Positions 32,101-58,406 of a stretch of DNA of 64,000 nt are shown here, piece after piece. The first letter of the stretch is position 1; the number at the start of each line of letters is the position of its first letter. The notes under the pieces are model-generated. The model did no database searches, had not been told where the DNA came from, and saw nothing but the letters and a program-made list of their open reading frames with translations. This stretch comes from a virus (lineage: Duplodnaviria > Caudoviricetes): positions 605 to 64,604 of IMG/VR virus record IMGVR_UViG_3300010367_000128; one strand, written 5' to 3'. A program made the translations under genes and the position numbers.

Positions 32101-34305
32101 TACACTGAGCGCGCGGACGCGATGCAGGAGGCATTGGTGCAGCGCATCGCCGGCCTGGAGCTGGGCGAGGCCGCGCGCAAGGATCTCACCGATCGCGTGC
32201 GTGCCCACTTCGAATCGGCCCGGGTGCAGGCCCCATACTTCCCGCTGGCGCGCTTCGGCGAGTATTGGGTGGCCGCCGAGAAGAACGGGGAGAAGGAATT
32301 CCGCATGATGGAAAACCGCGCCCAGCAGCGGCGCGTGCAGAACGCCTATGCCAAGGAGGGTTGGACGACCAAGGCCGGCGCCAAGCTCGACATGCTCCAG
32401 GCGGTCGACGGCGCCAGCGCCTCGTTCATGGCCCAGGTGACCGAAAAGCTCAACGAGGCGAACGTGGACAAGGATGTCACCGACGAGATTTATCAGCTCT
32501 ACCTCCGCACGCTGCCGGACCTTTCCGTGCGCAAGCAGTTCATCCACCGCAAGGGTGTCGCCGGCTACGACCAGGATGCGCTCCGCGCGTTCGCCGGGCA
32601 CATGAACCACGGCGCCTACCAGCTGTCGCGGCTGGAGAACAGCCAGGTGATGGAGACCTTGCTGCGGACCATGCGCAAGGACGTCGAGGCCTTGAGCGAG
32701 GGCGGCGGCGTGGAGGCGGTCAAGGCCGCGCGGGCGATGAGCGAGGTCGACAAGCGGCACCAGTGGATCATGAACCCGAAGGACGCGGCGTGGGTCCAGC
32801 GCGTCTCCTCGGCCAACTTCGCCTATTACCTGGGCGCTACCCCGGCCGCCGCGCTGGTCAACGTGCTCCAGGGCGCGGTCACGACCTTCCCCGCATTGGC
32901 CTCCAAGCACGGCTGGGTGAAGGCGCTTTCCGCCTTGACCTCGGCCACGAACGCCTCGATCCGCACCTACGGCAACATCGAGAAGACCCTGCGCAACGCC
33001 GACGAGCGCACGGCCTACGAGCAGTTGCTCGCCATGGGCGCGATCGATCGAACGCTGTCGCACGACCTGGCCGGCATGGGCGAAGGCTCGCTCCTCTCCT
33101 ACAACCCGGCGTGGCGCAAGACCATGGGTGTGCTATCGCACCTGTTCCACAAGGCCGAGGTGTTCAACCGCGAGGGTGCGGGCCTTGCCGCGTATCGCTT
33201 GAGCCGCGAGGCGGGCGAGACCCACGAGGCGGCGGTGAAGTACGCCGCCGACACGATTTTCCAGACCCATTTCGACTACTCCAACGCCAACCGCGCCCGC
33301 TTCATGCAGGGCAATGCGGCCAAGGTGCTGTTCGCCTTCAAGCAATACAGCCAGTCGATGACCTATTACCTCTGGCGGAACTTCTACCAGGCCACGCGCG
33401 GCGCGAGCCCGCAGGAGCGCAGCGAGGCGCGGAAGAAGCTGGTTGGCACGCTGGGCATGACGGCGGTGTTTTCCGGCGTGCTCGGCCTGCCACTGATGAC
33501 CCTGTCGATGCAGGTCGCCAACGCCATGGCGGCGATGTTCGGCGACGACGACGAGCCGTGGGATGCCGAAACGGAGTTCCGCAACTTCCTGTCCGACTTC
33601 CTCGGCCCCACCTTCGGCCGGATCGCCCAGGTCGGCCCGGTGCAGGCACTCACCGGCCTGGGCATCGCCGACCGCACCAAGCTCGATCAAATGTGGTTCC
33701 GTCCCTCGGATAAAGAACTGGAGGGCCGGGCCGCGTACGACTACCTGCTTGAACAGGTCGCCGGTCCGGTCGGTGGCATGTTCGCCAACGGCTACCGCGC
33801 GGGCCAGCTCTACGCCGACGGGGAACTCTGGCGTGGCATCGAGACCGCCATGCCCAAGGCGGTCAAGGACGCGTTGAAGACGATCCGCTATGCCAACGAG
33901 GGCGTGCGCACGCTGTCGGGCGATCCGCTGGTGCCCGACCTGTCGCCGTATCAGATCGCGATGCAGGCGGCCGGGTTCTCCCCGGCCGAGGTGTCCGAGC
34001 GCTACGAGGCGAACAACGCGATGAAGGGCTACGAGCAGACCTTGGTGAAACGCCGCCAGTCGCTCTTGGACGCCTACGCGATGGCCACGCAAACCCGCGA
34101 CATGGAAGCGGTGCGCGCGGCCACGGAGGCCATCGAGCGGTTCAACCGGAAGAACCCGGAAATCGGGATCAACGCCAGCACGATCCGGCGCAGCTTGCAG
34201 TCGCGGCAGAAGTACAGCCAGCGCATGGTCGATGGCCTCGTGCTCAACCCGAAGCTGGATGCACGCCTGCGCGCGGCGGTGTCCTTCGACGATCAAGGGG
34301 AGTGA
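26113..34305 (+). CDS. Giant polyvalent internal virion protein (metallopeptidase-like, two ART-PolyVal-like and PLxRFG domains)
   Basis: AHEAIGHYG (~29700); FKEWFG.S....G.P...H..GYD..QxKSA..N.G.FS twice (30217-30660, 30706-31491); YFPLARFGEY (~32240). Confidence 0.85.
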   Translation: MARDPNVDRLIAALSTPPPPEDTPKVQASDFGKQLGSGALQAVGYGLEGVGQAINAPSNGNGQQPLVDASPITALGRRIAAKGTEVGKSVSPTAAQRMAASTPDGTFTDPSSWTLGSDPSVSGYALQAANVLGQVAPVAATALATRGRILPTAGVSAALGGGAAAGQEEDRINAMPAEQLATLPAYQDAIARGMSPAAARDRLASRAGQTAFAQTAPVSALSGLTEGLPITGQFQNALGKVVGTSRVARAVAGGVTDAIAEGSQEALENAAEISGANTATGEDRSLQEGGVQNAVLGAVGGAAVGTAGGLIHNGHGAPVSSDTPVAAPASAPGEAPAAPPKPAAVSAPYQAGAVNPLTGDINVAPGVNVNPNDGPLSKALGTGAVVGAMDRPAMVTMDDGSVVHGETGEVLTGPSEQIAQQREADAKQAKAAAKTAEAPAPSQTESSNELALDLPPAPAPGTAVENAPASPVANAEATPTPTPTVTEPDTTTASVPFFITMAQRAELRARGVDNDAIRRMTPAEAQQRLAQPAPVTADISGLNKRQLTAQALTVEQEQAKRIDLLGDEAKLTAYAADKGVSVDEMRATLQANHQVNTARLDQLNKALATAPDDPVKPVTSWKDVPANQQALDAAVAEAYAQRGVLDAQATGALAKRLGVTRQEVAEAKKRVSGTAPAEATPASATTYPTVIAANRARRAMADPNTFVVAQTGPKAYELRPVGAAESTSQENSNGNEEAKPVRREGGQQVGPNAGENAPGNERQAGSEEGGTAVQGGPAPDAGSATGSGGSGSDSGDAVAAVGEAGRGRGGADENARGGSGTETADLGRAVEDGRQGQAVADGGTGREDALQPTEVNESGELLDGDITTPSGSPFTIRDAAEKTAARHPGHSVVELEDGGYVVREGVRNEQAPANEEPVSGRAGPDGKASRANEGTEERAGASVSDGAVAGEPAGAVETPASSDKLPARGETPVATNPDEALAKARNGDPLAPKEQRLLARRKVIEKLDAAKLYSDISGASKSAATKAINAMETAKDRSGGVLKDGLRDVAAVIEAAQKAIPKGASASEQTVDGINAVMETLSKKKPKPKADAVPAPGKGEGVNENRADQPALFSKNTASTPTARTLDPERVTAQVTKITSAWKNAPLVRVVATAAELPAHIRVAAGFDASVEAAHENGAIYMIADRFSTPARVQQVLAHEAIGHYGVEQILGPQGFRNVRDQLIVARDAGRLKELFAEIDSRYGTLDNDTLASEALAVMAERGTRTPLLGRALNALRAFLRSLGFTITFSEGDLRHILANAGKWLESGRARPLVKLREEASFASGETSAGDPESNDSPFDEGWWASVPNRGDSAVVADARRQWAEKGTESPYFKEWFGNSQAKTKAGKPVTFYHATNGDFSVFDTTKAGTSTGYAASGLGIFLTPNQDTASRYGDRVMQLYVKAEKPYRMGVDELSSFETVGDARRRQQELAAQGYDSIFVPADKTLIAFGADQVKSATSNRGTFSAATPDINFSKYEKPAPEFVPDGKQTETKAFKEWFGESKVTNEDGTPKAVFHGSTANIESFKGPAYFSEDPTEASAYTFASRLAKREKALANSKYKTAKGAEKYAGQRVDYTGIVDDDNSVGKPFATDQGVVIRNADGTITAFTDLVGDKKTFNLQDMTIELKRGDGRKAARKLVTDYREHIDDRFPPGKGVNGNVTPVYLAIENPMEMHPHVANRFGARLGGTSEEWAATVADLEAKGYDGISTISDDPGAPYGTKQWIPLRPEQIKSAVGNNGAFSKADERITFSKNPAAALNDDIEKAAKFKVTDIVDTLRDKREDWRPNWLGMLTLRQLGEVAAPYLPKIGAYTDTVQTMQTRRNQLQESAAKTADKWWQWQRKNREAGQAMAEVMHDATLSGVDPAEPFRPGSVTLAGGITVPMTEAAVAKEVRSLEAKAANAPKQVKSLLQADITRLQEALAQEAGRRQAYPELKQRYDALPEGAKAIYTEVRDAYTERADAMQEALVQRIAGLELGEAARKDLTDRVRAHFESARVQAPYFPLARFGEYWVAAEKNGEKEFRMMENRAQQRRVQNAYAKEGWTTKAGAKLDMLQAVDGASASFMAQVTEKLNEANVDKDVTDEIYQLYLRTLPDLSVRKQFIHRKGVAGYDQDALRAFAGHMNHGAYQLSRLENSQVMETLLRTMRKDVEALSEGGGVEAVKAARAMSEVDKRHQWIMNPKDAAWVQRVSSANFAYYLGATPAAALVNVLQGAVTTFPALASKHGWVKALSALTSATNASIRTYGNIEKTLRNADERTAYEQLLAMGAIDRTLSHDLAGMGEGSLLSYNPAWRKTMGVLSHLFHKAEVFNREGAGLAAYRLSREAGETHEAAVKYAADTIFQTHFDYSNANRARFMQGNAAKVLFAFKQYSQSMTYYLWRNFYQATRGASPQERSEARKKLVGTLGMTAVFSGVLGLPLMTLSMQVANAMAAMFGDDDEPWDAETEFRNFLSDFLGPTFGRIAQVGPVQALTGLGIADRTKLDQMWFRPSDKELEGRAAYDYLLEQVAGPVGGMFANGYRAGQLYADGELWRGIETAMPKAVKDALKTIRYANEGVRTLSGDPLVPDLSPYQIAMQAAGFSPAEVSERYEANNAMKGYEQTLVKRRQSLLDAYAMATQTRDMEAVRAATEAIERFNRKNPEIGINASTIRRSLQSRQKYSQRMVDGLVLNPKLDARLRAAVSFDDQGE
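28310..28678 (+). CDS. Nested +1-frame ORF: 122-aa basic, histone-H1-like protein
   Basis: AGGAG 7 nt before ATG; mostly G/C-ending codons in this frame; 16 K, 8 R, no D/E. Confidence 0.55.
   Translation: MATKKPSPFGGKVVSKSVPMPAKMRQAMNGKPAARKAAPPSKVVQRRTPVARPAAAGAGAIPAMPLQPSAKLGGGVAVPTKTPVAAAAPKLRTSGGQSKMGGKAKPSPMAARAAKMLSSRPK
28835..29032 (+). CDS. Nested +1-frame ORF, 65 aa
   Basis: AAGGAG 6 nt before ATG; host-frame codon bias relaxes over this stretch. Confidence 0.45.
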   Translation: MSKPLLTRSPFLDELVLMEKLAEPMKEQRNALARAFPMEPWPESPPEPLKLQHLATSYPLVVKRP

Positions 34306-36637: not shown

Positions 36638-37660
36638 TTACTCCACGTTGAACAGGTCGTCGTCGCGGCCCGAAGGGGGCGCATCCTGGGTGGCGCTTTG
36701 CTTTGCGGCCGGCTTGGCCTTGGCCGGTGGCTCGTCGAACTCCTGGGGCAGCGGCTCGCGCTTGTCGCCAGCGGGCACCTCGCGATCGACTTCGGTGTCG
36801 CGGGTAACTTCGAACGGCAGCTCGTCGTGGGCCAGCGGGTGCACCGGCTCGTCCCCAGCATCCTCCGTGACGGGCTCCTCCGGTGCATCGGGATCGAGGC
36901 TTGTGGTGGCGTCGGTGGCGTCGGCCAGTTCGCCCTCGTCGATCGCGGTGTCGCGCAGGCGTTCGTTCACCGCCGAGGCGCTGGTGCGGCGACGGTTGGC
37001 CGTGTGCTCGTCGATGATCGAGACGTCCTCGATTTCCTCGACCGTGGGCAAGCCGAGGGTCAGCTCGGGCGCGTGCGCTTCCAGCCAGAACGACGCGGCG
37101 CGGTACATGAACATCTGATCGGCCATCGTCGTCCACTTCGCGTTCTTGTCCCAGCCCTCGCCCTTGACCATCTTCCAGGTCACCCAGGTGCCAAGTAGCA
37201 CTTCGCCGCTCTCCTTGTCGGTCGCGTACGCGCGGCACCCGTAGCCATCCTGGCCGGGCTCGCCCTTCCACTCGTACTTGATGCGCGAGAACAACGGCGA
37301 GTTGTTGACCAGCGCGGCCTTGAACTTGCCCCGGAAGCCGGGGCGGCCCTTGACCACGTCCATGTTCTGCATGAGGGTGAACGGCGACAGACCCATACGC
37401 GAGGAGATCTCCAGCGCGACCAAGCAGTTGCCCAGGCCAACGGGGTTGTGCACCCACTGGCCATTGCGCAGGTTGTAGGCCTGATACTGGTCCGGCACCA
37501 TCGTCGATTCGGAGAGTGTCTTAGCCATTTCCATGGCCACATGAAAACTCCGGCCGCTGGAGAACACGGCCAGCGGGTTGTTGTCACTGGCGATCGCCGG
37601 CAACAGCGACGGCTCCATGGCGGTGCTTTCCGCCAGTGCGTTGTCTTTCGGTTCGGTCAC
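36638..37660 (-). CDS. RecT/Red-beta-like single-strand annealing protein
   Basis: MAKTLSESTMVP..Y, NCLVALE...MGLSP...MQN..VVKGRP, KW.TM..QM..YRAA. Confidence 0.8.
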   Translation of the reverse strand: MTEPKDNALAESTAMEPSLLPAIASDNNPLAVFSSGRSFHVAMEMAKTLSESTMVPDQYQAYNLRNGQWVHNPVGLGNCLVALEISSRMGLSPFTLMQNMDVVKGRPGFRGKFKAALVNNSPLFSRIKYEWKGEPGQDGYGCRAYATDKESGEVLLGTWVTWKMVKGEGWDKNAKWTTMADQMFMYRAASFWLEAHAPELTLGLPTVEEIEDVSIIDEHTANRRRTSASAVNERLRDTAIDEGELADATDATTSLDPDAPEEPVTEDAGDEPVHPLAHDELPFEVTRDTEVDREVPAGDKREPLPQEFDEPPAKAKPAAKQSATQDAPPSGRDDDLFNVE

Positions 37661-37914
37661 GACGTGGTTTCCTTGTTATCGGTGGGACGGCCAACGAGGC
37701 CGCAGTACCCGGTGAGTGAATCTTCCCAGCGCCAGGCCATGCAGCTGGCGGCGATGCAGCAACAATCGCGATCCGCGACGCCGCCCGTGTTCGGCACACG
37801 ATTGCCCGAGGTGCCGCCGATGGCGGCCACATCCTTCCGATCGACCACGGGGATTTGCGACATGGCGAACGGGCACCAGCGCTGACGCGCGAGGGTTGGC
37901 GACATGATGCTCAT
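37657..37914 (-). CDS. Cys-rich hypothetical protein
   Basis: WCPF...CIASSCMAWRW...GYCGL; coupled on both sides. Confidence 0.7.
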   Translation of the reverse strand: MSIMSPTLARQRWCPFAMSQIPVVDRKDVAAIGGTSGNRVPNTGGVADRDCCCIAASCMAWRWEDSLTGYCGLVGRPTDNKETTS

Positions 37915-38834
37915 GCGGCCATGGCCTCATCCAAGCCGGTGTAGATCTTCGGCAGACGCAGGTCGGCGACCCCGTTGGTGTAGCTGGGGAAATCGTCGCG
38001 CTCGATGCAGTCACGCAGCTTGCGCAGGCCGGCCATGTACTTGTTTTCCCCATCCAGCCGGTCGTCGTCGCTCAACTGGTAGGAAGCCGGTGCGTAGGGC
38101 GGGGTCTTCTCCTGCACCAGGAAAATGAAGTTGTCGATGTGCACGTTGTTTTCTTCGAACGCGCGGGAATACATCGCGTCCTGCATGTCGTAGCTCATCC
38201 GCTTGGCGGCATAGCGCCAGTTTTCCGGCGCCGCCGAGCGAGCCGACTTGAGATCGACGAACAGGCCGTTTTCGGCGTGCAACCAGTCCCCGCGCGACTT
38301 GCAGCGGATGCCGGTCTCATTGCACGTCCACAATGCGGTGACTTCGGCCCGGCCCCCTTTGCGCAGGAGATCGCGGACCCATTTGAAGCGGTACAGCGCA
38401 TCGCGCATGCCGATCACATGGCGGTGCTGGGCCGGGGTGATCCAGACCTTGCCGCGCGTCTCCTCCTCGATCCAGACCTGGCGCAGCTTCGCGTTCGCCG
38501 GCTTGCGCAGGCTTCCAAAGTCCGGCATGACGATCACCTTCGCGTCGAACAGATCCGGCTCCAGCACGGCGACGTGGTAGGCGCTGCCGAAACGCAGCAC
38601 ATCCGCGTCCTCGATCGGTTCGCCACGCTCGTCCAAGCGCACCGGGTTCTCTAGGTGGTCGAGGAAGTGAAAGGCGGATTTGCCGGTCAGCAGCGAGAGG
38701 GCCGACTTCGACACAATCGAGGGCGAGCCGTGGTACAGCGATTCGTCCAGGTCTTCCAGCAAGGCGTGGCCGGGCTGGCCGCGCGCGAACGCGGGCGCCG
38801 ACCAGGCGGGCAGTTTCATCATGGCAGGGTGCAT
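37911..38834 (-). CDS. RecE/exonuclease VIII-like PD-(D/E)XK nuclease (DUF3799-like)
   Basis: YH...SKS.L, FGSA.HVAVLEP, CKSR.DW...VDLKS, YDMQDAMY. Confidence 0.88.
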   Translation of the reverse strand: MHPAMMKLPAWSAPAFARGQPGHALLEDLDESLYHGSPSIVSKSALSLLTGKSAFHFLDHLENPVRLDERGEPIEDADVLRFGSAYHVAVLEPDLFDAKVIVMPDFGSLRKPANAKLRQVWIEEETRGKVWITPAQHRHVIGMRDALYRFKWVRDLLRKGGRAEVTALWTCNETGIRCKSRGDWLHAENGLFVDLKSARSAAPENWRYAAKRMSYDMQDAMYSRAFEENNVHIDNFIFLVQEKTPPYAPASYQLSDDDRLDGENKYMAGLRKLRDCIERDDFPSYTNGVADLRLPKIYTGLDEAMAA

Positions 38835-40237: not shown

Positions 40238-40690
40238 TTACCGGGGCGTGGAGTTGGGGATATCGATGCCCGCCCGGATCGACGTCGAATCCCGTATCGC
40301 GTTGATGGTGGCGAGTATGTCGCCCTCGCTCATGTTGTGCGGTGACACCGTCGCCCGTTTCGCCTCGCGCAGGATCAGCACCATGCTGGTCGGGGCGCCA
40401 AAGCTGCCCCGGTAGATGCCCTGGGCCACGAGCTTGAGCCGTTCGGCCACCGAGACCGTCGCGGCGGGCATGCCGCCGGGAACCAAGGCGATGCCCAGGT
40501 GACCCAGCCGGTCCATCGGACTGTTCCACGCTGCCCGGGCCTGCGCCTGGTGATCGGCGCGGGTCTTGATCACCGCCGGGCCGCGCGCGCCGCAGCGTGG
40601 GCAGGCCACCCATACGGCCAGGGCGTCGCCCTCGATCGGCGGGGTCGGGTACTGGCAGAAGTGGCAGGGAACGGCGTCAGCCATGGTCAT
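40238..40690 (-). CDS. Lar-like restriction-alleviation zinc-ribbon protein
   Basis: PCHFC...VACPRCGARGP...A.AAWN. Confidence 0.6.
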   Translation of the reverse strand: MTMADAVPCHFCQYPTPPIEGDALAVWVACPRCGARGPAVIKTRADHQAQARAAWNSPMDRLGHLGIALVPGGMPAATVSVAERLKLVAQGIYRGSFGAPTSMVLILREAKRATVSPHNMSEGDILATINAIRDSTSIRAGIDIPNSTPR

Positions 40691-46036: not shown

Positions 46037-46468
46037 ATGGACTACGATGCCCGCTTGACCGCCGCGACTGCCGCCCTGTTGGGCTTCTCGCTGGCGGGCG
46101 CTCCCCTCCCCAAGTTCCCCGGCACCGGCCGCCTGGCGCCCGAGACGGCCAAGGCGATGGCCGAGGCGGCGCTTTTGGCCGCGCACCCTGTCCATGCGGG
46201 GCGCACCGACGAGCAGTACGCCATCGAGTTCGGTGGCTACCTGGCCACGGCCGCGACCAGCTACCTCGCCGCGCGTAATCGCCTCGACCTGGCGATCGAG
46301 GCGAACGAAATGGCCTACGAGGACGACGAGAGCGAAAGCGAAGCCCTCGATGAGCTGGAGGCGGCACGGGAAACCGTGAGCGAGGCCGATGACTGCTTGC
46401 GCAACGCGATTTACCAGTTTACCAAGCGGGCCGAACGCGCAGGCCTTGGCAAGGCGGTGGCCGAATGA
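46037..46468 (+). CDS. Acidic hypothetical protein
   Basis: GAGG RBS; EDDESESEALDELE patch. Confidence 0.72.
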   Translation: MDYDARLTAATAALLGFSLAGAPLPKFPGTGRLAPETAKAMAEAALLAAHPVHAGRTDEQYAIEFGGYLATAATSYLAARNRLDLAIEANEMAYEDDESESEALDELEAARETVSEADDCLRNAIYQFTKRAERAGLGKAVAE

Positions 46469-46722
46469 ACGCCGAGACGCAGAAGGTGGGCCTGATGAAT
46501 CTTCGTCGCCGCCACGAGGAATACATGATCGCGTGGCGTCAAAGTGGTAAGCCAACGCGCAATTACGAAACGCCTTGCTGCGGCAAGGAAATCGAAACAA
46601 CGGCCCCTTCGAACGACGAGACGTGGGACTCGCTCACAACGTGCCCATGGTGCGGCGATCTTCATATGAAGGTAGTCACGCGCCATGCCGTCCGCACCGC
46701 CCGCGTCGGGGGTGCGGCATGA
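46465..46722 (+). CDS. Small Zn-binding protein (paralogue of 55906-56166)
   Basis: TPCC...ETTAPSN..WDS...CP.CG. Confidence 0.72.
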   Translation: MNAETQKVGLMNLRRRHEEYMIAWRQSGKPTRNYETPCCGKEIETTAPSNDETWDSLTTCPWCGDLHMKVVTRHAVRTARVGGAA

Positions 46723-47012
46723 TCCTGGCCATCGTACTTGCCACCGGCACGGCCTTGTCGCCGGCATCGAAGATGGACGAGTTGGCTTGGTGCACAAGCG
46801 TGCGTCGGATGGCCGTGGCCACGGCCACCGCCAAGCTGAACGGCCTGACGGAAACCCAAGCGCACGGCATGGTCTTCACGATCGAGAACCCGTATGCACG
46901 CGCCTCGGCGCACGCGGTAATTTATATGGCCTACCACGGCAACGCCGACGATGGCGTGTCGCCCAAGGTCTTCGGCTCGATCGCCTTCCAAGCCTGCATG
47001 AGCGAGGAGTGA
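46719..47012 (+). CDS. Hypothetical protein with hydrophobic N-terminus
   Basis: MILAIVLATGTAL; ATGA coupling. Confidence 0.6.
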   Translation: MILAIVLATGTALSPASKMDELAWCTSVRRMAVATATAKLNGLTETQAHGMVFTIENPYARASAHAVIYMAYHGNADDGVSPKVFGSIAFQACMSEE

Positions 47013-47015
47013 CCC

Positions 47016-47231
47016 ATGCGCATTCAAACCGTCACCCGCGAGCATCGGAACGACTTCCAGGCCACCCTGGAATGCGAGCACTGCACCCATACGGGAACGC
47101 TGACCGGGGGCTACCACGACGCGTTCTACCACGGGCACGTCATTCCCTCGATTATCTGCGCCGGATGCGGAAAGAACCGCGCCGGTCACACCACCCCGCA
47201 CGCCGGGGTCAACGGGGTTGTCACGGTATGA
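47016..47231 (+). CDS. Small zinc-ribbon protein
   Basis: RNDF.A..ECEHC...GY.D..YH..VIP...C..CGK; GAGGAG RBS. Confidence 0.7.
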   Translation: MRIQTVTREHRNDFQATLECEHCTHTGTLTGGYHDAFYHGHVIPSIICAGCGKNRAGHTTPHAGVNGVVTV

Positions 47232-47599
47232 AAAACGAATCGAAAGAATGGTTGAAGGGCATCGCCGTGGGCGACACCGTAGTGGTTAGGCGACCCGGTG
47301 GTATTTCGAGACGGGCCAATTATTCCCTAGCCAAGGTGGATCGGCTGACGGCGACGCAAATCATCATCCGGAATGAATACGCCCGCGAGGAGCGCTTTCG
47401 TCGCAGCGATGGGTCGAAGATCAGCGATCGGTGGGGCACTGATTTGATGCCAATGACCGATAACGTGCGCAAAAATATGCATGAACAGCGGATCGAAAAT
47501 CGGTTCGCCACGCTGGTTGTGCATGGGAACAAAACCCTGTCGATTGCTGACCGGGAGGCCATGCTGGCCGCCTACGATGCGCTGCACACAGGAGAATAA
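47228..47599 (+). CDS. Small beta-barrel hypothetical protein
   Basis: VGD.V....KV.RLT.TQI.....RFRR.DG. Confidence 0.68.
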   Translation: MKNESKEWLKGIAVGDTVVVRRPGGISRRANYSLAKVDRLTATQIIIRNEYAREERFRRSDGSKISDRWGTDLMPMTDNVRKNMHEQRIENRFATLVVHGNKTLSIADREAMLAAYDALHTGE

Positions 47600-47602
47600 G
47601 GC

Positions 47603-48760
47603 ATGAGCACGATGACGCTGGAACAGGTGCGTGACGCACTACAAAGGTTGAGCAGGGGCCGCATGGATTATGTGGAGCTACGCCAGATGGCCGATGCTAT
47701 CGACGCCCACCTCACTTTGCGACTGGTTCAGCCTGCCGAGCAGCCGAGGGGCGAGCCGGTGGCTTATCGCTATGCCCTTGAGTCCGGCAAATGGACGGTG
47801 TTCATCAGCAAGGCGCGTGCGAGGTACTTGGCGGAACACGGCGCAGAGGCCGATCCCCTGTACTCCGCCCAGCCGAAGCCCGAGCAGGCGGTGGGCGATG
47901 GAGTGAAGCCGAGCGCGTGGCTCTATACGTGGCACGATCCGCTGCACGACGCAGAACTAACAGTTGCCGCCGACGCGTGCGAGGAACGCGCGAGGAAACG
48001 CGCGGCGGAAGTCGGTGCCGTCGTCGAACCTCTATACAAGCAGAGCCCGGCTGTCGCCACGGCTGGGGATGGGGATGGGGTGACGATCAAGCGCTACGAC
48101 GTCGAGTACATGCCGCGCATATTCGGTGACGGTGTGAAGCGGGACGGCGCGACGATGCGAGAGCACCCGCAAGGCGTGTACGTCACCTATTGCGATCACC
48201 TCGCCGCCCTCGCCTCTCGCCCCGTGGAAGCTGTCGCCACGGTTGCCGAGGTGACGGTCAAATCGATCATGGAGATTGTTGAGGGAGTAATTCGCGACCA
48301 CGGTGGGGAAGACCTTGACGATGAAGATGTCCGGCACAGTTTCGACGCGTGCTTACGCGAACGCCTAGAAGCCGCCCTCGCCCATCTCCGTCCCACGGGG
48401 GTGACGGACGATAGCCTTGACGCTGAAAACAACGACCTGTCTGCGGATAACTATCGGCTGCATTCGCGGATTGGTGAACTTGAGGCTGAGCTAGAACGTC
48501 TCACCGCCCTCGCCCAGCCGCGCCCTATGGGCGGGGTGCCGGATGTTGAAGCGATGACGCGGCGATTCCTGAGTTGGCGACTTCCCGACGCCTTCGCCCC
48601 GGATTGCGGCATCAGCTTCAAGCCGCTGACCAATCCCCCGGGGATGCAACCGCCGCTATGGCCGACGGGGACCAACCTGTTCGCCTACGAACAGGCCAAG
48701 GCGATGTTTGAGTACGTGCTCGCCGCCGCGCCGGAGGTGGGTCAGAACAATGAAAACTGA
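47603..48760 (+). CDS. Modular Ead/Ea22-like mosaic protein
   Basis: EPVAY..., PLY..P, AALA..P linkers repeated; AGGAG RBS. Confidence 0.7.
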   Translation: MSTMTLEQVRDALQRLSRGRMDYVELRQMADAIDAHLTLRLVQPAEQPRGEPVAYRYALESGKWTVFISKARARYLAEHGAEADPLYSAQPKPEQAVGDGVKPSAWLYTWHDPLHDAELTVAADACEERARKRAAEVGAVVEPLYKQSPAVATAGDGDGVTIKRYDVEYMPRIFGDGVKRDGATMREHPQGVYVTYCDHLAALASRPVEAVATVAEVTVKSIMEIVEGVIRDHGGEDLDDEDVRHSFDACLRERLEAALAHLRPTGVTDDSLDAENNDLSADNYRLHSRIGELEAELERLTALAQPRPMGGVPDVEAMTRRFLSWRLPDAFAPDCGISFKPLTNPPGMQPPLWPTGTNLFAYEQAKAMFEYVLAAAPEVGQNNEN

Positions 48761-48860
48761 CTGGATCGTGCTGACCATTCTGGCCCCCTTCGTGCTTATC
48801 GGCGTGGTGGGCTGGTGGGCCGGCTGGCTGATCGGAAAACTACCCTGGGGAGAATCGTGA
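48750..48860 (+). CDS. 36-aa single-TM peptide
   Basis: GGAGG RBS; MKTDWIVLTILAPFVLIGVVGWWAGWLIGKLPWGES*; TGATG coupling. Confidence 0.55.
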   Translation: MKTDWIVLTILAPFVLIGVVGWWAGWLIGKLPWGES

Positions 48861-49216
48861 TGGCCGACCGCAAGCTATCGCAGGTGGAACTCGACGCGGA
48901 GAACGCGGCGAAGGAACTGGCGACGATGCCGGATGCATGGTTCAAGGCTGGCGTGCAGCCGTTGCCGGTCATGCGCGCCATCGCCCTCCTGCGCCAGCTT
49001 GGGGCGCGGGTGGCGCGGGTGGAGAAAGACCTGGCCGCCGAGCGCCGCCAGCACCGGGAGACCGAGCAGCGCGTCGTGGACGTGCGCCGGGAGCGTGACA
49101 TCGCCCGCTCCGAGCGCGACGCACGCCTGTCGCTGGTCCGTGACACCGCTCCGATGGAGTACGGCGTCCGTGCCGGTACCGACCGGACTACCTCGGGAGA
49201 CATTGGCCAGCCATGA
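48860..49216 (+). CDS. Coiled-coil hypothetical protein
   Basis: GGAG RBS; coupled. Confidence 0.62.
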   Translation: MADRKLSQVELDAENAAKELATMPDAWFKAGVQPLPVMRAIALLRQLGARVARVEKDLAAERRQHRETEQRVVDVRRERDIARSERDARLSLVRDTAPMEYGVRAGTDRTTSGDIGQP

Positions 49217-49497
49217 ACGCACACCAACGCCGTACCTATCGCCGCCGCGTGAAGAAGGACCATCGTTTTTGGCCTTTGGGCACCACAGTCAGAGTTAAGC
49301 CGGGGCATCACAGTCCGGAAGCCGTTGGCGAAATCGGTCACGTCTTCAAGCATGGCTACCCGTGCAAGTCGGGCGTTAACTGCATCGTCGATTTCTTCTC
49401 GCCGATCTACGACACCACCTATGGCGGGTCCCGTTACGCCCACTACGTGGATTTCCAGCACCTTGAGGTGATCAACAAGCTGGCGGTGCGCGCATGA
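49213..49497 (+). CDS. Hypothetical protein
   Basis: ATGA-coupled; MNAHQRR start. Confidence 0.65.
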   Translation: MNAHQRRTYRRRVKKDHRFWPLGTTVRVKPGHHSPEAVGEIGHVFKHGYPCKSGVNCIVDFFSPIYDTTYGGSRYAHYVDFQHLEVINKLAVRA

Positions 49498-49868
49498 AAG
49501 CCCTCTCGATCCGACAGCCCTGGGCCTGGCTGATCACGCACGGGTACAAGCGTGTGGAGAACCGCTCCTGGCGTACCCCGTTCCGTGGTGAGTTTCTAAT
49601 ACACGCCGCCGGCAAGATGACCCAAAACGATTACTACCGAGCCTTTTCGCTCGCGTTTCGCCAGGGGATCATCGTGCCGCACGAGGATGCGCTGGGGTTC
49701 GGCGGCATCGTTGGCGTGGCCACCCTTGTCGACTGCCGGCCGGTCGACCCCCGGGGCGAGAAAGACCCGTTTTTCTTCGGTCCCTATGGCTTCATCCTCA
49801 CGGATGCCGAGCCCAGGGAATTCATTCCCTGCAAGGGAAAACTCGGCTTCTTCAACGTGGAGAGTTGA
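49494..49868 (+). CDS. ASCH domain protein
   Basis: MKALSIRQPWAWLI..G.K.VENRSW.T..RG..LIHA. Confidence 0.92.
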   Translation: MKALSIRQPWAWLITHGYKRVENRSWRTPFRGEFLIHAAGKMTQNDYYRAFSLAFRQGIIVPHEDALGFGGIVGVATLVDCRPVDPRGEKDPFFFGPYGFILTDAEPREFIPCKGKLGFFNVES

Positions 49869-49873
49869 TCGAC

Positions 49874-50383
49874 ATGACCTTTACCCTGGCGGATGAGACG
49901 GTACGCAGCGCGGCGGACATCAGCGAGTGCGGGCAGTATCGCTACACCCTGTCCCGCGTGTGGGACGACGACCTGCCGCTGGTCGGCTATTGCATGCTGA
50001 ACCCGAGCACGGCCGATGCCATGCAGGACGACCCGACCATCCGTAAGTGCATCCACTTCGCCCGGGCCCACGGCTACGGCGGTATCCGCGTGGTGAACCT
50101 GTTCGCCTTCCGCTCGGCGCACCCGGCGGAACTGCCGGTCCTGGTCGGCCAAGCCCAGGGCCCAGCCAACGAGACGCACCTGCGTCGACTGGCCAGCCAC
50201 GTCGCTTCGGTCATCTGCGCCTGGGGCTGCAATGTGCGCGTCACCCCCGAGGTTGTCGGCGTGGCCATGCGCGCGTTCGCCGGTACCGACCTGCCGACCT
50301 TGTGCCTGGGCCGGACCAAGGACGGCAGTCCCCGCCATCCGTTGTACTTGGCGAACAGCACCTCGCTGGAGACCTACCCGTGA
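49874..50383 (+). CDS. DUF1643 domain protein
   Basis: YRY.L.R.WD, MLNPSTAD...DDPTIRKC, VNLFA.R, AWG, G.PRHPLY. Confidence 0.92.
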   Translation: MTFTLADETVRSAADISECGQYRYTLSRVWDDDLPLVGYCMLNPSTADAMQDDPTIRKCIHFARAHGYGGIRVVNLFAFRSAHPAELPVLVGQAQGPANETHLRRLASHVASVICAWGCNVRVTPEVVGVAMRAFAGTDLPTLCLGRTKDGSPRHPLYLANSTSLETYP

Positions 50384-50568
50384 TGCGTATCCTGCTCGCC
50401 AGCTTGGCCACGCTGTACGTCTACGGCGCGGGGGCCTTTTGCATGTGGGCGGGCGGCGCCGCCTGGGGCACGGTGGAAACAGGCATGATCGTGTTCCTGC
50501 TGGCCATTGTCGGGCCGCTGGCTGGGGCATTCGCCTACAACGCGAAAACCATATGGGCGGGACTATGA
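50383..50568 (+). CDS. Small two-TM membrane protein
   Basis: Two hydrophobic segments; TGATG coupling. Confidence 0.58.
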   Translation: MRILLASLATLYVYGAGAFCMWAGGAAWGTVETGMIVFLLAIVGPLAGAFAYNAKTIWAGL

Positions 50569-50729
50569 AACGCGGTCAGAAAACCAAGGGTGGCCTGACG
50601 CGCAAGGAGCGCCAGGCCGAGGCACGCTTGGACCGGCGTCCACCGATGACGATCGATCAAGCCCGCGAGCGGGAGGCCTTGCTCCGCGCCGCGCTCGGGA
50701 TAAAACACCGTCCTGGTCTCGGCCCATGA
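50565..50729 (+). CDS. Small basic hypothetical protein
   Basis: ATGA coupling on both sides. Confidence 0.5.
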   Translation: MKRGQKTKGGLTRKERQAEARLDRRPPMTIDQAREREALLRAALGIKHRPGLGP

Positions 50730-51289
50730 AGCGCGGAGCCCCACTCCGGCGAAAGAAAGGCCTGCGCCCCGGTCCACCATTGAAGCGTGTGGCCTTGGAA
50801 GCCATATATGACGGCAATGGCGCCGTGGCAGGATGGAAGCCGAAAAAGACCAGCACGTTGCGCCAAGGACGAAGCACGGGAAAGCCGACCAAGGCCCAGG
50901 CCGAGCGCATGGACAAGGTGGCCAACGGCGGGTGCATCGCCTGCTACCACGAGTTCCTATGGAACAGCGCCAACGTCATCGCCTACGGGATCGGTACCGG
51001 CATAGGTGGTGGTACCGAAGTGCACCACCTTACCGTGGGTGGCAAGCATGGTCAGCGACGCCGAGGGCACTGGTTCACCATCGGTCTTTGCTCCTGGCAC
51101 CATCGTGGCGAGTCGCATATTTCGCCGAAGGTTGAGCGATGCAAGATCGCGCTGGGGCCGAGCCTGCATCACCATCCCGCTGAGTTTCGTGCACGCTATG
51201 GCAGCGACGATTACCTGCTGGCGTGGCAGAACTACCTCATCCAGATGCCCGGCATCCCGATGCCGGAATTGCGTCAACGCGGGTGTTGA
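50726..51289 (+). CDS. Ref-family (RecA-dependent) HNH nuclease
   Basis: Basic N-tail, GCIAC, EVHHL..G.K.GQ.R.GH..TIGLC.WHHRG, GPS. Confidence 0.78.
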   Translation: MKRGAPLRRKKGLRPGPPLKRVALEAIYDGNGAVAGWKPKKTSTLRQGRSTGKPTKAQAERMDKVANGGCIACYHEFLWNSANVIAYGIGTGIGGGTEVHHLTVGGKHGQRRRGHWFTIGLCSWHHRGESHISPKVERCKIALGPSLHHHPAEFRARYGSDDYLLAWQNYLIQMPGIPMPELRQRGC

Positions 51290-51314
51290 CATAGGCGGTA
51301 TCCGCCTGTAGTGT
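51286..51314 (+). promoter_or_regulatory. Sigma70 promoter of accessory operon 2, with inverted-repeat operator in spacer
   Basis: TTGACA-TAGGCGGTATCCGCCTG-TAGTGT; spacer holds AGGCGG/CCGCCT inverted repeat. Confidence 0.75.
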
Positions 51315-51371
51315 GCGGACTGTCCGGGGCGCTGAACCCCGGCGCCCCTGCCAAAAATCGAGGTAATGACC

Positions 51372-51566
51372 ATGCCGCACATCATGATGTACCCGCGTCC
51401 GCGCAAGCCGGACATTCACCACTTCGCCGTCACCGTGCGCAGTCCCGAAGGTGTCAGCACGTTCCATCTGCCGGCCGAATCGGCCAACGATGCGCGGCGC
51501 GAGGCGATCCGCCTGTACGCCAACGAGCACGATAGCCCGGTCACGGCCTGGGCGGAGGTGCACTAA
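51372..51566 (+). CDS. Small hypothetical protein
   Basis: GAGGT RBS 7 nt before ATG 51372. Confidence 0.65.
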   Translation: MPHIMMYPRPRKPDIHHFAVTVRSPEGVSTFHLPAESANDARREAIRLYANEHDSPVTAWAEVH

Positions 51567-51805
51567 TGGCTCACTACATCGATGACTATCGCAACGACCC
51601 ACGCCGGTACCGGCGCACCATCTATCAGGTGATGGTGCTTACGCGCCTGATCTACCAGCGCAACGGCTGGCCACATGGGGCAGCCGAGGCCATCGCGCGC
51701 CTGCGCCGCCATGCCGAGTCGATCAGCGTTAGAACGCTGGGTGCGCACGGGCACCTGACCCAGCTTAACCCTGTCCAGCACGTCAGCGAGGAGTTCGGCC
51801 CATGA
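51566..51805 (+). CDS. Small hypothetical protein
   Basis: GGAGGT RBS; TAATG coupling. Confidence 0.65.
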   Translation: MAHYIDDYRNDPRRYRRTIYQVMVLTRLIYQRNGWPHGAAEAIARLRRHAESISVRTLGAHGHLTQLNPVQHVSEEFGP

Positions 51806-51951
51806 GCACCAATGCGACGCCTTGGCAAGCGGGATATGACGATGCGCAGTCGCACAAGGCTCCGGATGAGTCCCTCCTCGGAGACGAGGCCAAAGCGTAT
51901 AGCCGTGGCTGGCTGGCAGCCATGGAAGACATGTGCGGAGAGCAGGCATGA
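51802..51951 (+). CDS. 49-aa Rmf/CrpP-fold-like peptide (not in ORF track)
   Basis: GAGGAG RBS; WQAGYDDA...AYSRGW. Confidence 0.55.
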   Translation: MSTNATPWQAGYDDAQSHKAPDESLLGDEAKAYSRGWLAAMEDMCGEQA

Positions 51952-52241
51952 GCACCGAGACGATGAAGGTGGATGTGCTGGATGCGATGGATATGTACGT
52001 CGCGAAGGCGAAGGACATCGCAGCCGAGAACCCTGACAGCACCGGATTGCAGCAAGACGTGATTCAGGCGGAAGCAGCCCGCGCCGCCATGGCCGAGTTG
52101 ATTGAGGTCATGCAGGAGGCGCAGAGGATCACTCGCTTAGCGCTTGCCGAGAGGGCAATTAAGGGCCCGCTACGCTCACACTTTACCGGCCTATCGCATC
52201 GCCTTACCGCCTCCCTTGCCCGCGTTGGGGGTGCCAAGTGA
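51948..52241 (+). CDS. Hypothetical protein (cassette B)
   Basis: MSTETMKVDVL...ARAAMAELIE...LARVGG. Confidence 0.68.
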   Translation: MSTETMKVDVLDAMDMYVAKAKDIAAENPDSTGLQQDVIQAEAARAAMAELIEVMQEAQRITRLALAERAIKGPLRSHFTGLSHRLTASLARVGGAK

Positions 52242-52750
52242 ACGCCGAGACGCAGAAGGTGGATGTGCATCAGAGCAAGCTGCGCCCGGAGGACAACAAG
52301 TTCCACAAGGGCAATGGCTCCGATCAGAAGCACTACTGGCTGACGCCTGCGGCGCTGTACGCGCAGTTGGACGGCGAACACAGCTTCACGTTCGACCCGT
52401 GCCCGTACCCGAAGCCGGATGACTTCGACGGCCTTACGTGTGAATGGGGTCAGTCCAACTACGTCAATCCGCCCTTCGGCTCGATCCTCCACCAGGGCAA
52501 GAAGAAGGGGCCGACCGCTTGGGCGCGAAAGGCTATCGAGGAATCGAAGAAAGGTAAGCGCGTTGTACTCGTGTACCCCATCGACAAGTGGGTACTGATG
52601 CTGCTTGCCGCAGGTGCGAAGGTTTCGAACTTGGGCGACGTCCGCTGGGTGGCTACCGAAGATGGATCCACCGGGAAGGGGACGGGACGACACATTGCTT
52701 GCTTCGTACTTGAGGGTGACGCCCTCGCCCGCGTCGGGAGTGACGCATGA
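52238..52750 (+). CDS. Phage DNA N6-adenine methyltransferase (Dam, T1/HP1-type)
   Basis: WLTP..L...LD....F.FDPCP, DGL...W, YVNPPF catalytic motif. Confidence 0.8.
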   Translation: MNAETQKVDVHQSKLRPEDNKFHKGNGSDQKHYWLTPAALYAQLDGEHSFTFDPCPYPKPDDFDGLTCEWGQSNYVNPPFGSILHQGKKKGPTAWARKAIEESKKGKRVVLVYPIDKWVLMLLAAGAKVSNLGDVRWVATEDGSTGKGTGRHIACFVLEGDALARVGSDA

Positions 52751-53136
52751 TCATCCAGCAGAAAACACCACGCCTGATGATGGGCGGCCAAGTCACCAGC
52801 GACATCGTCGCCTATTTCATCATCATGCTCACCGCGCAGGTGGTCGCTACCTACCTGGCCGCACAGGATGGCTTTGTCGTCGGCCTGGTCATCGGCGGGG
52901 CCTCGATCTTCACCTGGCTCCTGGTCTTCGGTTTCTACACCTACGACCAGCGCCAGGCCGAGCGACGCAAGCGCTGGTCGAGCCGCGTGTGGAACGATGG
53001 CGATGCCATCCTCAAGCGCTTCAACGACTCGTTCCAGGCCGTGGGCGAGGACGCTGCGCGCGATCCCACCAACACGTTCCGAACCATGCGCCGTCGGGCG
53101 CTCCTGGCCCTTGCGCGGAAGCGCCGCCAGGTCTAA
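52747..53136 (+). CDS. Two-TM membrane protein
   Basis: Two hydrophobic helices, basic C-terminus. Confidence 0.65.
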   Translation: MIIQQKTPRLMMGGQVTSDIVAYFIIMLTAQVVATYLAAQDGFVVGLVIGGASIFTWLLVFGFYTYDQRQAERRKRWSSRVWNDGDAILKRFNDSFQAVGEDAARDPTNTFRTMRRRALLALARKRRQV

Positions 53137-57942: not shown

Positions 57943-58406
57943 CCGCTCCAGCAATGCGCGCGGTCATGCGCATGCGGAACAGGATGTACGCGCGCCGCCC
58001 GCTCAAGCCGCACATATTCCTGGCCTACCCCGGAAGCGGGGACCCGCGATGGATTGCCACCTATGGCGTTTACACGGGATATGGCGCCAGCGCCGTGGAA
58101 GCCGAGGAAGACCTGGCCCGCTTCGCTGGCGCCTGTCGGGCTCGACTCGTTCTTCACCACCTATACGCGCAAGCACCTGCCGCCACCGTGGAGACCCAAA
58201 CCGTGACCAATCCACGTCCCAGCTTCTACAAGCCCCACCTCAGCGTCAACGTCATCCCCGGCAACTCGCAGAAGTTCCGCTGGCGCGCGACGTTCGAAGG
58301 CATCGACGGATTCGGCCGAAGCCCGCGCGCCGCCATGATCTATCTGGAGGCCGAGTACAAGAAGCGCCTATGCACTGCGTACGTCCCATGGAGGGCAACG
58401 TCATGA
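57939..58406 (+). CDS. Hypothetical protein
   Basis: AAGGGGG RBS; two weak internal repeats (KPH......W.AT..G..G.G.S...A). Confidence 0.62.
   Translation: MTAPAMRAVMRMRNRMYARRPLKPHIFLAYPGSGDPRWIATYGVYTGYGASAVEAEEDLARFAGACRARLVLHHLYAQAPAATVETQTVTNPRPSFYKPHLSVNVIPGNSQKFRWRATFEGIDGFGRSPRAAMIYLEAEYKKRLCTAYVPWRATS

Follow-up and report, generated by a model that had tools for sequence, protein, structure and literature searches.

Two unrelated genes of a soil phage appear to carry the in-frame ends of a small three-helix gene family

A long-standing question is how single accessory genes can pass between phages while the tightly coupled operons around them stay intact; recombination at boundary sequences is set against random illegitimate recombination followed by selection. 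Boundary sequences of lambdoid phages are short conserved stretches at module junctions (Susskind & Botstein, 1978; Clark et al., 2001; both as cited in the section of PMC3029335 that treats them). T4-type phages carry PeSL cassettes, for which the relevant part of the original report describes insertion, deletion, replacement and formation of mini-circles by recombination (Arbiol et al., 2010; PMC2839356). The locus considered here lies in a 64,000-nucleotide stretch of DNA (the window), bases 605-64604 of the IMG/VR record IMGVR_UViG_3300010367_000128 (64,604 bp, with direct terminal repeats and rated complete), which derives from a metagenome assembly of an uncultured soil phage. Three genes of the window, encoding a Zn-ribbon protein (Zn), a small protein termed g2 and a Dam-like methyltransferase (Dam), share about 24-30 nucleotides at their starts (the left boundary, L) and about 27 nucleotides at their ends (the right boundary, R). 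The locus can be regarded as phage mosaicism of the boundary-sequence type, the nearest known cases being lambdoid boundary sequences and PeSL shuffling. With moderate confidence, we consider L and R to be the native 5' and 3' ends of a three-helix gene family to which g2 belongs, and Dam and Zn to be chimeras in which the core of such a gene has been replaced.

As in the lambdoid phages, so far as PMC3029335 outlines them, short conserved stretches here separate non-homologous segments at gene boundaries, within operons having overlapping stop and start codons, and such stretches have been proposed as crossover points for general or phage recombinases. Unlike the lambdoid stretches of that outline, those of the window are located inside reading frames, where they take up the first 8-10 and the last 6-9 codons, and are traceable to one donor gene family; they are found in one genome and three protein-level relatives, not across a phage group. 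As to a boundary that flanks alternative modules, zero related genomes were found by DNA or by flanking genes, and the comparison is with the three protein-level relatives. The likeness to PeSL cassettes is that non-essential genes of a variable region are bordered by short elements that recur. PeSLs, in that portion of their description, are intergenic and comprise a Sigma-70-like promoter and a stem-loop terminator at each repeat, whereas the repeats here are coding and have no promoter, terminator or stable hairpin.

The shared ends had first been pointed out in a sequence-only reading of the window, and that observation was confirmed. A 24-mer of L is identical, 24/24, at 46466-46489 in Zn and 52239-52262 in Dam, a match that arose in 0 of 100 shuffles; including flanks, 46460-46489 agrees with 52233-52262 at 28/30. 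The L copy of g2 matches that of Dam at 26/30 when aligned from the second base (51949-51978 with 52239-52268) and at 25/30 when aligned from the start codon, and a repeat scan places it at 51953-51979 with 23/27. For R, the Zn and Dam copies (46698-46724 and 52726-52752) agree at 24/27 and the g2 and Zn copies at 20/27, and each of the three proteins has ARVG[GS] at its C-terminus. The ends of g2 are further from those of Zn and Dam than these are from one another. No further copy of L with up to three mismatches exists on either strand of the window. The 16-mer core of R occurs with 0-1 mismatch at these three places alone in the window; allowing up to three mismatches, there are 13 matches, 10 of them with 2-3 mismatches, where 6.98 are expected by chance. 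Among the 17 direct pairs of 24-mers found with up to three mismatches over the whole window, only the three of this set are situated at gene ends, and in a six-frame motif scan the N- and C-terminal peptides stand at the termini of open reading frames (ORFs) in Zn, g2 and Dam only. Between these ends, the three genes are different: blastp finds only the termini, global DNA alignment scores equal those of shuffles, and the cores fall into different families (phrog_3786 for Zn, PF05869/phrog_111 for Dam, none for g2), as the sequence-only reading had held. The repeats at the gene ends are real, and the cores are not detectably homologous. Coordinates are collected in Table 1.

Table 1. Features of the boundary-sequence locus and related genes; positions are those of the window unless a locus is named
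Feature	Position	Strand	Description
L, Zn copy	46460..46489	+	exact 24-mer 46466-46489; TGA of the upstream gene overlaps the ATG of Zn
Zn-ribbon gene (Zn), 85 amino acids	46465..46722	+	core about 10-69, phrog_3786; residues 1-8 and 79-85 correspond to three-helix family termini
R, Zn copy	46698..46724	+	ARVGGAA, stop; G-rich Shine-Dalgarno (SD)-like tract; ATGA overlap with gene 46719-47012
g2, 97 amino acids	51948..52241	+	intact member of the three-helix family by motifs: VDVL ... AELIE ... ALARVGG
L, g2 copy	51949..51978	+	diverged, 26/30 to the Dam copy
R, g2 copy	52217..52243	+	directly adjoins L of Dam, GTGA overlap
L, Dam copy	52233..52268	+	exact 24-mer 52239-52262; similarity to g2 extends to 52268
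Dam-like N6-adenine methyltransferase (Dam), 170 amino acids	52238..52750	+	core 11-159/160; residues 1-10 and about 161-170 correspond to three-helix family termini
R, Dam copy	52726..52752	+	ARVGSDA, stop; SD-like GGGAG; ATGA overlap with gene 52747-53136
RecT-like single-strand annealing protein	36638..37660	-	phrog_561, E 5e-59
Exonuclease VIII-like protein	37911..38834	-	likely partner of the RecT-like protein; phrog_412, E 6.6e-66
Ref-like RecA-dependent nuclease	50726..51289	+	PF16786, E 3.4e-15; between the two cassette loci
Second small CxxC...CxxC protein	47016-47231		phrog_14808, E 3.5e-24
Accessory genes near the locus, as a group (Lar-like, ProQ C-terminal-like, ASCH, DUF1643, Ref-like)	40238-40690 (-), 47228-47599, 49494-49868, 49874-50383, 50726-51289		
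HQPG.FNIE domain loci	L098:4989-5513, L099:4971-5456		

Two other gene starts resemble L over a few letters. The gene at 49213 begins with ATGAACGCA (49213-49221; MNA...), of which the first 8 nucleotides are the same as in L, and the gene at 51802 begins with ATGAGCACC (51802-51810; MST...), of which the first 9 are the same as in g2; both stretches are too short to be told from chance. Beyond the boundary set, the longest near-repeat of the window is a 37-nucleotide direct repeat, 15692-15728 and 58122-58158, with 31/37 identity.

The origin of the ends is indicated by g2. Its relatives in a large protein collection are P0004 (E 7e-24) and P0005 (E 1.6e-17); the comparisons with these and with P0002, a relative of Zn, are at the protein level. 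P0005 has 166 amino acids and comprises an unrelated domain of about 70 residues followed by the g2-like part. A phmmer search of 1.84 billion representatives with P0005 gave 49 matches in two groups, one having an N-terminal HQPG.FNIE...VFDT domain, alone or fused, and the other consisting of proteins of 80-110 amino acids. The family alignment was made from 20 short matches together with g2 and P0004 (22 sequences); proteins bearing the N-terminal domain were omitted, as were two that are much extended at the N-terminus. Its consensus is xxxxxVDVLAVM ... ARAAVAELIEA ... GEYHDPE ... RRR.ER.RL.AALARVxG. An [VI]D[VIP][LCVF] motif is present within the first 16 residues of 19 of the 22 sequences, and ARVxG within the last 10 residues of 10/22, or 18/22 when a looser C-terminal motif is accepted. 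A typical member thus has about 80-110 amino acids, begins with M-x(1-8)-VDVL and ends with ALARVGG-x. When the terminal patterns M-x(1-8)-[VI]D[VI]L and ALARVxG are applied, g2 has both; Dam has M-x6-VDV and ALARVG, and Zn has M-x6-V and ARVGG, and these two share nothing else with the family. A hidden Markov model (HMM) of the family, the alignment of which includes g2 itself, finds the g2 ORF in the window with 84.4 bits, and Dam and Zn are undetected. In the predicted structure, g2 is a three-helix bundle (mean predicted local distance difference test score, pLDDT, 84.8), with coil over residues 1-9 and LARV at the close of helix 3. The alignment and this predicted fold show that L and R are the natural ends of the family, with g2 as their native owner. 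They are the termini of one resident gene family, instead of the standardised adapters that the sequence-only reading had supposed.

The family is itself mosaic. The N-terminal half of g2 matches P0005 and its C-terminal half matches P0004 at 100%, and the C-terminal half of P0005 shares 82% identity with P0016. The matching partner changes at conserved motifs, AELIE and ALARVGG, and mosaicism is seen between VDVL, AELIE and ALARVGG. This fits recurrent recombination at short conserved stretches, for which the phage encodes the enzymes. Pfam and PHROG give no match that would suggest a function of the family, and no PDB fold matches at E <= 0.001; tblastn of g2 against phages gives no match either. 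Searches for related loci returned 5 loci with the family alignment and 2 with the alignment of the HQPG domain (X-domain), with no arrays and no further chimeras among them. This second unnamed domain of about 65 amino acids (HQPG.FNIE ... W.GGMNR ... R.RVF ... VFDT) is found among P0005-P0033; it stands alone in P0011 and P0020, and elsewhere forms the N-terminal part of fusions with the three-helix family or with quite different C-terminal parts, in proteins of up to 430 amino acids. The N-terminus of g2 resembles that of P0005 minus the HQPG.FNIE domain, removed between two short ET-containing repeats.

In Dam, the same ends enclose a core from a different and widely distributed family. 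The protein matches PF05869 with 24.6 bits, which is under the Pfam cut-off of 28.1, and phrog_111 with E 1.1e-12; there are 5818 homologues at E <= 1e-40, and many of them are labelled PF05869 in precomputed annotation. The homologues have in common a conserved core, residues 11-159 (HQS.L ... FVLE), and NPPFG is invariant in their alignment (A3); an NPPF-type motif is presumably the catalytic site of a Dam methyltransferase. The ends of the window gene do not accompany this core elsewhere: L and R are present in 0 of the 80 IMG/VR loci kept from 235 relatives, and in 0/119 of the homologues listed out of the 5818, including P0055 and P0056 at 90-91% identity. In the structure model of Dam, the two tails are outside the confident fold, with mean pLDDT 44 for residues 1-10 and 51 for residues 161-170. 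The family HMM finds no three-helix gene in the 80 Dam loci of IMG/VR, and because of this the pairing of g2 with Dam seems to be peculiar to this phage. Dam is therefore, as far as comparison with its homologues can tell, a chimera in which a foreign core lies between three-helix family termini.

The same appears to hold for Zn, which matches phrog_3786 over residues 4-78 (E 2.3e-17) and whose CC...CxxC pattern, taken by itself, suggests that the protein may bind zinc. With tblastn, 22 phage records match it, within residues 10-69 at most, and the termini are reached in 0/22. A homologue in phage KPP25, ORF037, has the same length as Zn and different termini. The sole close relative, P0002 (81% identity), retains both ends; 3 of its first 10 residues differ from those of Zn, while the left ends of Zn and Dam in the window are identical. 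By these comparisons, Zn is likewise a foreign core between the termini of the three-helix family. The boundaries are thus not always around the same genes, since other Dam cores are without them and P0005 has a different content between them. Of the two results that the sequence-only reading had named as refuting it, homologous cores and boundaries constantly around the same genes, neither was obtained.

The arrangement of the ends in the operon suggests why they might have been kept. The starts of Zn, g2 and Dam each overlap the upstream stop codon as NTGA, so that each L begins at a restart codon; the ends of Zn and Dam overlap the following start as ATGA, and the end of g2 overlaps the start of Dam as GTGA. 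In all three R, GGGGG or GGGAG stands 5-6 nucleotides ahead of the next start. As had been described from the sequence, stop codon, G-rich SD-like tract and the start of the following gene are all provided by the right boundary. Four-nucleotide NTGA overlaps are found at 10 of the 20 junctions in 46.0-53.5 kb, and one further ATGA was seen by eye. At the protein level, some homologues of Dam read at its left junction ...YKVD-HQSKL where the window reads ...QKVDV-HQSKL; at the right junction, Dam cores end in FVLEG(D) and the three-helix family ends in ..D-A-ALARVGG. The Zn homologue of KPP25 has ..DL.. at the left junction and ends in ..VRV. Overlaps of 1-3 residues of this kind are what recombination at microhomology would be expected to leave.

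In the reading that we prefer, Dam and Zn would each consist of a core of its own family inserted between the first 8-10 and the last 6-9 codons of a gene of the three-helix family. Most likely, recombination replaced the interior of paralogues of this family, at junctions with 1-3 codons of microhomology. Survival of these products may be due to the expression signals that a tightly coupled operon keeps in the retained ends, the left one having the NTGA stop-start overlap with the first codons and the right one the G-rich SD-like tract with the ATGA overlap that starts the next gene. Keeping the first and last 25 or so nucleotides of the resident gene would leave the initiation signals of both neighbours untouched. 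As a by-product, 24-30-nucleotide direct repeats would be formed, which the RecT-like protein and the exonuclease could use for deletion, stacking, and exchange between phages that carry family members.

The left junction could alternatively be explained if L were non-coding in Zn and Dam and served as a common 5' leader with an SD-like AAGGTGG, translation starting at ATG 46495 and GTG 52265; the shared stretch would then be no more than an ordinary ribosome-binding spacer. AAGGTGG stands 5 nucleotides ahead of ATG 46495, where the predicted SD pairing score is -7.8 against -8.2 at the annotated start; Dam translated from V10 would begin right at the conserved HQS core, and some relatives (L037) do begin with M-HQ... 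However, in none of the three genes does the annotated NTGA start have a poorer SD score than the internal one (-8.2, -6.6 and -9.7, against -7.8, -3.0 and -6.7), and the NTGA overlap is the commonest type of junction in this region. P0002 is without the internal methionine, VDVL is conserved as protein sequence in the g2 family, and R is left unexplained by a leader. Such a leader is thus very improbable.

A more serious competitor is an active system of adapters, in which L and R persist through their use as portable in-frame arms of homology and RecT-type annealing repeatedly exchanges, stacks and deletes the cargo between them. On this account, the identity of L and near-identity of R on two unrelated cargos, with both pairs closer mutually than to the copy of g2, would be expected, as would the left end of Zn that matches Dam and not its own orthologue P0002. 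The g2 and Dam genes are arranged in tandem, as the sequence-only reading had noted in speaking of stacking, and in P0005 the sequence enclosed by an L-like start and an R end is a different one. The annealing gene called for by that reading is also encoded, in the form of a RecT-like protein with an exonuclease VIII-like partner, together with a Ref-like nuclease (its start at 50726 was read by eye, and the family search covered 50729-51289). Precedents are offered by the lambdoid boundary sequences and PeSL cassettes, to the extent that the passages concerned in PMC3029335 and PMC2839356 describe them. Relaxed or homeologous recombination by phage annealing proteins is known to lead to mosaicism (Martinsohn et al., 2008, PMC2327257; De Paepe et al., 2014, PMC3945230), and the parts of these papers that bear on it likewise concern phages with a RecT-like annealing protein and an exonuclease, for which short or diverged homologies are the proposed substrates.

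Several observations nonetheless make the adapter system unlikely. In contrast to the cases of relaxed recombination treated in those parts, the arms here have just 24-30 nucleotides, at or under the minimum homology of about 30 bp for Red-beta given in the pertinent section of De Paepe et al. (2014, PMC3945230). A wobble-degenerate L pattern has 0 matches in IMG/VR; it has 4 in genome contigs and 5 in metagenome contigs, all nine inside longer open frames and 8/9 away from any start codon, a number close to the estimated chance expectation. L is thus found nowhere else above chance in the viral, genome and metagenome collections; a search of phage databases with the boundaries had been suggested as a check of the adapter model. 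The ends occur on just three genes of this genome, and the cargo of Zn and g2 is unchanged in close relatives, P0002 having the same ends on the same gene. There is no evidence for ongoing cassette exchange, which is unproven. What stands of the cassette-swapping model is the real, in-frame sharing of ends by genes with unrelated cores; the neutral, standardised adapter does not.

The replacement of cores within three-helix genes has its own difficulties, and the following points weigh against it. Nearly the same pair of ends encloses two cores (L 24/24, R 24/27), which is not obvious from two independent illegitimate events and fits better with ends that move together with their cargo, as in the adapter model, or with gene conversion. 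The left identity of Zn and Dam, set against the difference of P0002, hints at intragenomic exchange and not a passive scar. The selection for translational coupling is something we infer, and the peptides might owe their conservation to a role as functional tags. The junctions were compared with P0002, P0004 and P0005 at the protein level only, and the window is metagenome-assembled and has no cultured host.

If the peptides were functional tags, the leader M-[NS]-x-E-T-[QM]-K-V-D, the ARVGG tail or both would confer shared recruitment or packaging into the virion. Both peptides are in frame on the three unrelated proteins and on their relatives P0002, P0004 and P0005, the C-terminal motif is kept across family members of less than 50% identity, and the g2 and Dam models show the leader as unstructured, as would be expected of a tag. 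The capsid targeting sequence (CTS) of T-even internal proteins, as treated in part of PMC3012670, is comparable in being a short N-terminal peptide common to otherwise unrelated proteins of one phage group, and such a peptide is indeed found here. It differs, within that treatment, in that targeting by the CTS has been demonstrated, whereas the genes here share a C-terminal tail as well and are not known virion components. Tags are nevertheless improbable, as all of the 4-5 nucleotide differences between the left ends of g2 and Dam are non-synonymous and those among the R copies are mostly so, a pattern unlike purifying selection on the whole peptide. In addition, the SD-like tract for the next gene accounts for the GG of the tail, and the genes are in an early or accessory region with no known partner.

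Direct repeats at the edges of cassettes, in a metagenome assembly, might also reflect a site-specific cassette system of integron or PeSL type, or an assembly artefact that joined strains at the repeats; we give these the least weight of all. Regarding the former, neither a tyrosine integrase (PF00589) nor a serine resolvase (PF00239) has a match in the complete 64.6-kb record. L has no inverted copy, and no hairpin at the boundaries that could stand for an attC-like imperfect inverted repeat is significant (z-scores of folding from -1.6 to +1.9, no better than shuffles). Integron-like sites were accordingly rejected. Cassettes with their own promoter or terminator were rejected as well: a scan of 45.5-53.6 kb revealed nothing promoter-like, and neither L nor R has a terminator-like site. 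Another candidate that was rejected is pairing between L and R as RNA, the duplex energies of which equal those of shuffles. As for an artefact, the repeats are shorter than usual assembly k-mers, and 51965-52246 and 52438-52746 are covered by separate contigs that show no differences, though these may come from the same sample. Fragments of the phage are present in three soil-metagenome runs of one study at about 3x, where no contig spans the region and the coverage is too thin for detecting deletions or variants; no deletion, circle or other recombination product was seen in these contigs. The single listed contig joint, from 49054 to 52943 with a shorter side of 21 letters, does not coincide with a boundary and was disregarded.

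The locus is embedded in DNA with a GC content of 65.8%. Structural genes occupy the plus strand to about 34.3 kb, and the block is closed by a single ORF of 2730 amino acids, 26113-34305 (+). A leftward block at 34.4-41.1 kb includes the genes of the RecT-like and exonuclease VIII-like proteins, and a rightward block from 41.2 kb contains replication genes and numerous small accessory genes. Among the genes of the accessory region near the locus are a Lar-like restriction-alleviation match, a ProQ C-terminal-like gene, ASCH and DUF1643 genes and the Ref-like nuclease. The second CxxC...CxxC gene is one gene (46719-47012) downstream of Zn and has neither boundary sequence. The only sizeable intergenic gap in 46-53 kb, 82 nucleotides, is at 51290-51371. 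At 51286-51314, overlapping the stop of the Ref-like gene, TTGACA is followed after 17 nucleotides by TAGTGT, with GC-rich inverted repeats thereafter; the site was unflagged by the promoter scan because its second hexamer matches at just 3/6. If it were a real promoter, Zn and the g2-Dam pair would be in separate transcription units. With 45.0-54.0 kb as the query, megablast against the phage collection gave zero matches, and a more sensitive blastn against phages gave only short patches in the Dam, DUF1643 and ASCH genes. Protein searches for related loci found none for Zn or g2, and likewise none for the upstream or the downstream gene.

Taking the replacement of cores as the preferred reading, the locus offers a tidy natural case: each of the two gene replacements can be read to the codon at both of its junctions, and the donor of the junction sequences is identified. 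In both chimeras the left side still has its NTGA restart and the right side its SD-like tract and ATGA overlap, which is consistent with survivors having retained the translation signals of their neighbours. An unnamed, mosaic family of three-helix proteins is at the same time brought to attention in soil phages, and the 24-30-nucleotide in-frame arms beside a RecT/exonuclease pair form a testable substrate. It is conceivable, though rather doubtful, that the termini of this hypervariable family act more generally as in-frame landing pads, so that any gene once captured between them is movable by RecT into any phage carrying a family member with its coupling intact; the mosaicism at VDVL, AELIE and ALARVGG would then be the same process acting within the family, and the result would be a gene-cassette economy without an integrase. 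If the ends are used repeatedly, they might represent a new route by which phages mobilise anti-restriction and other accessory genes.

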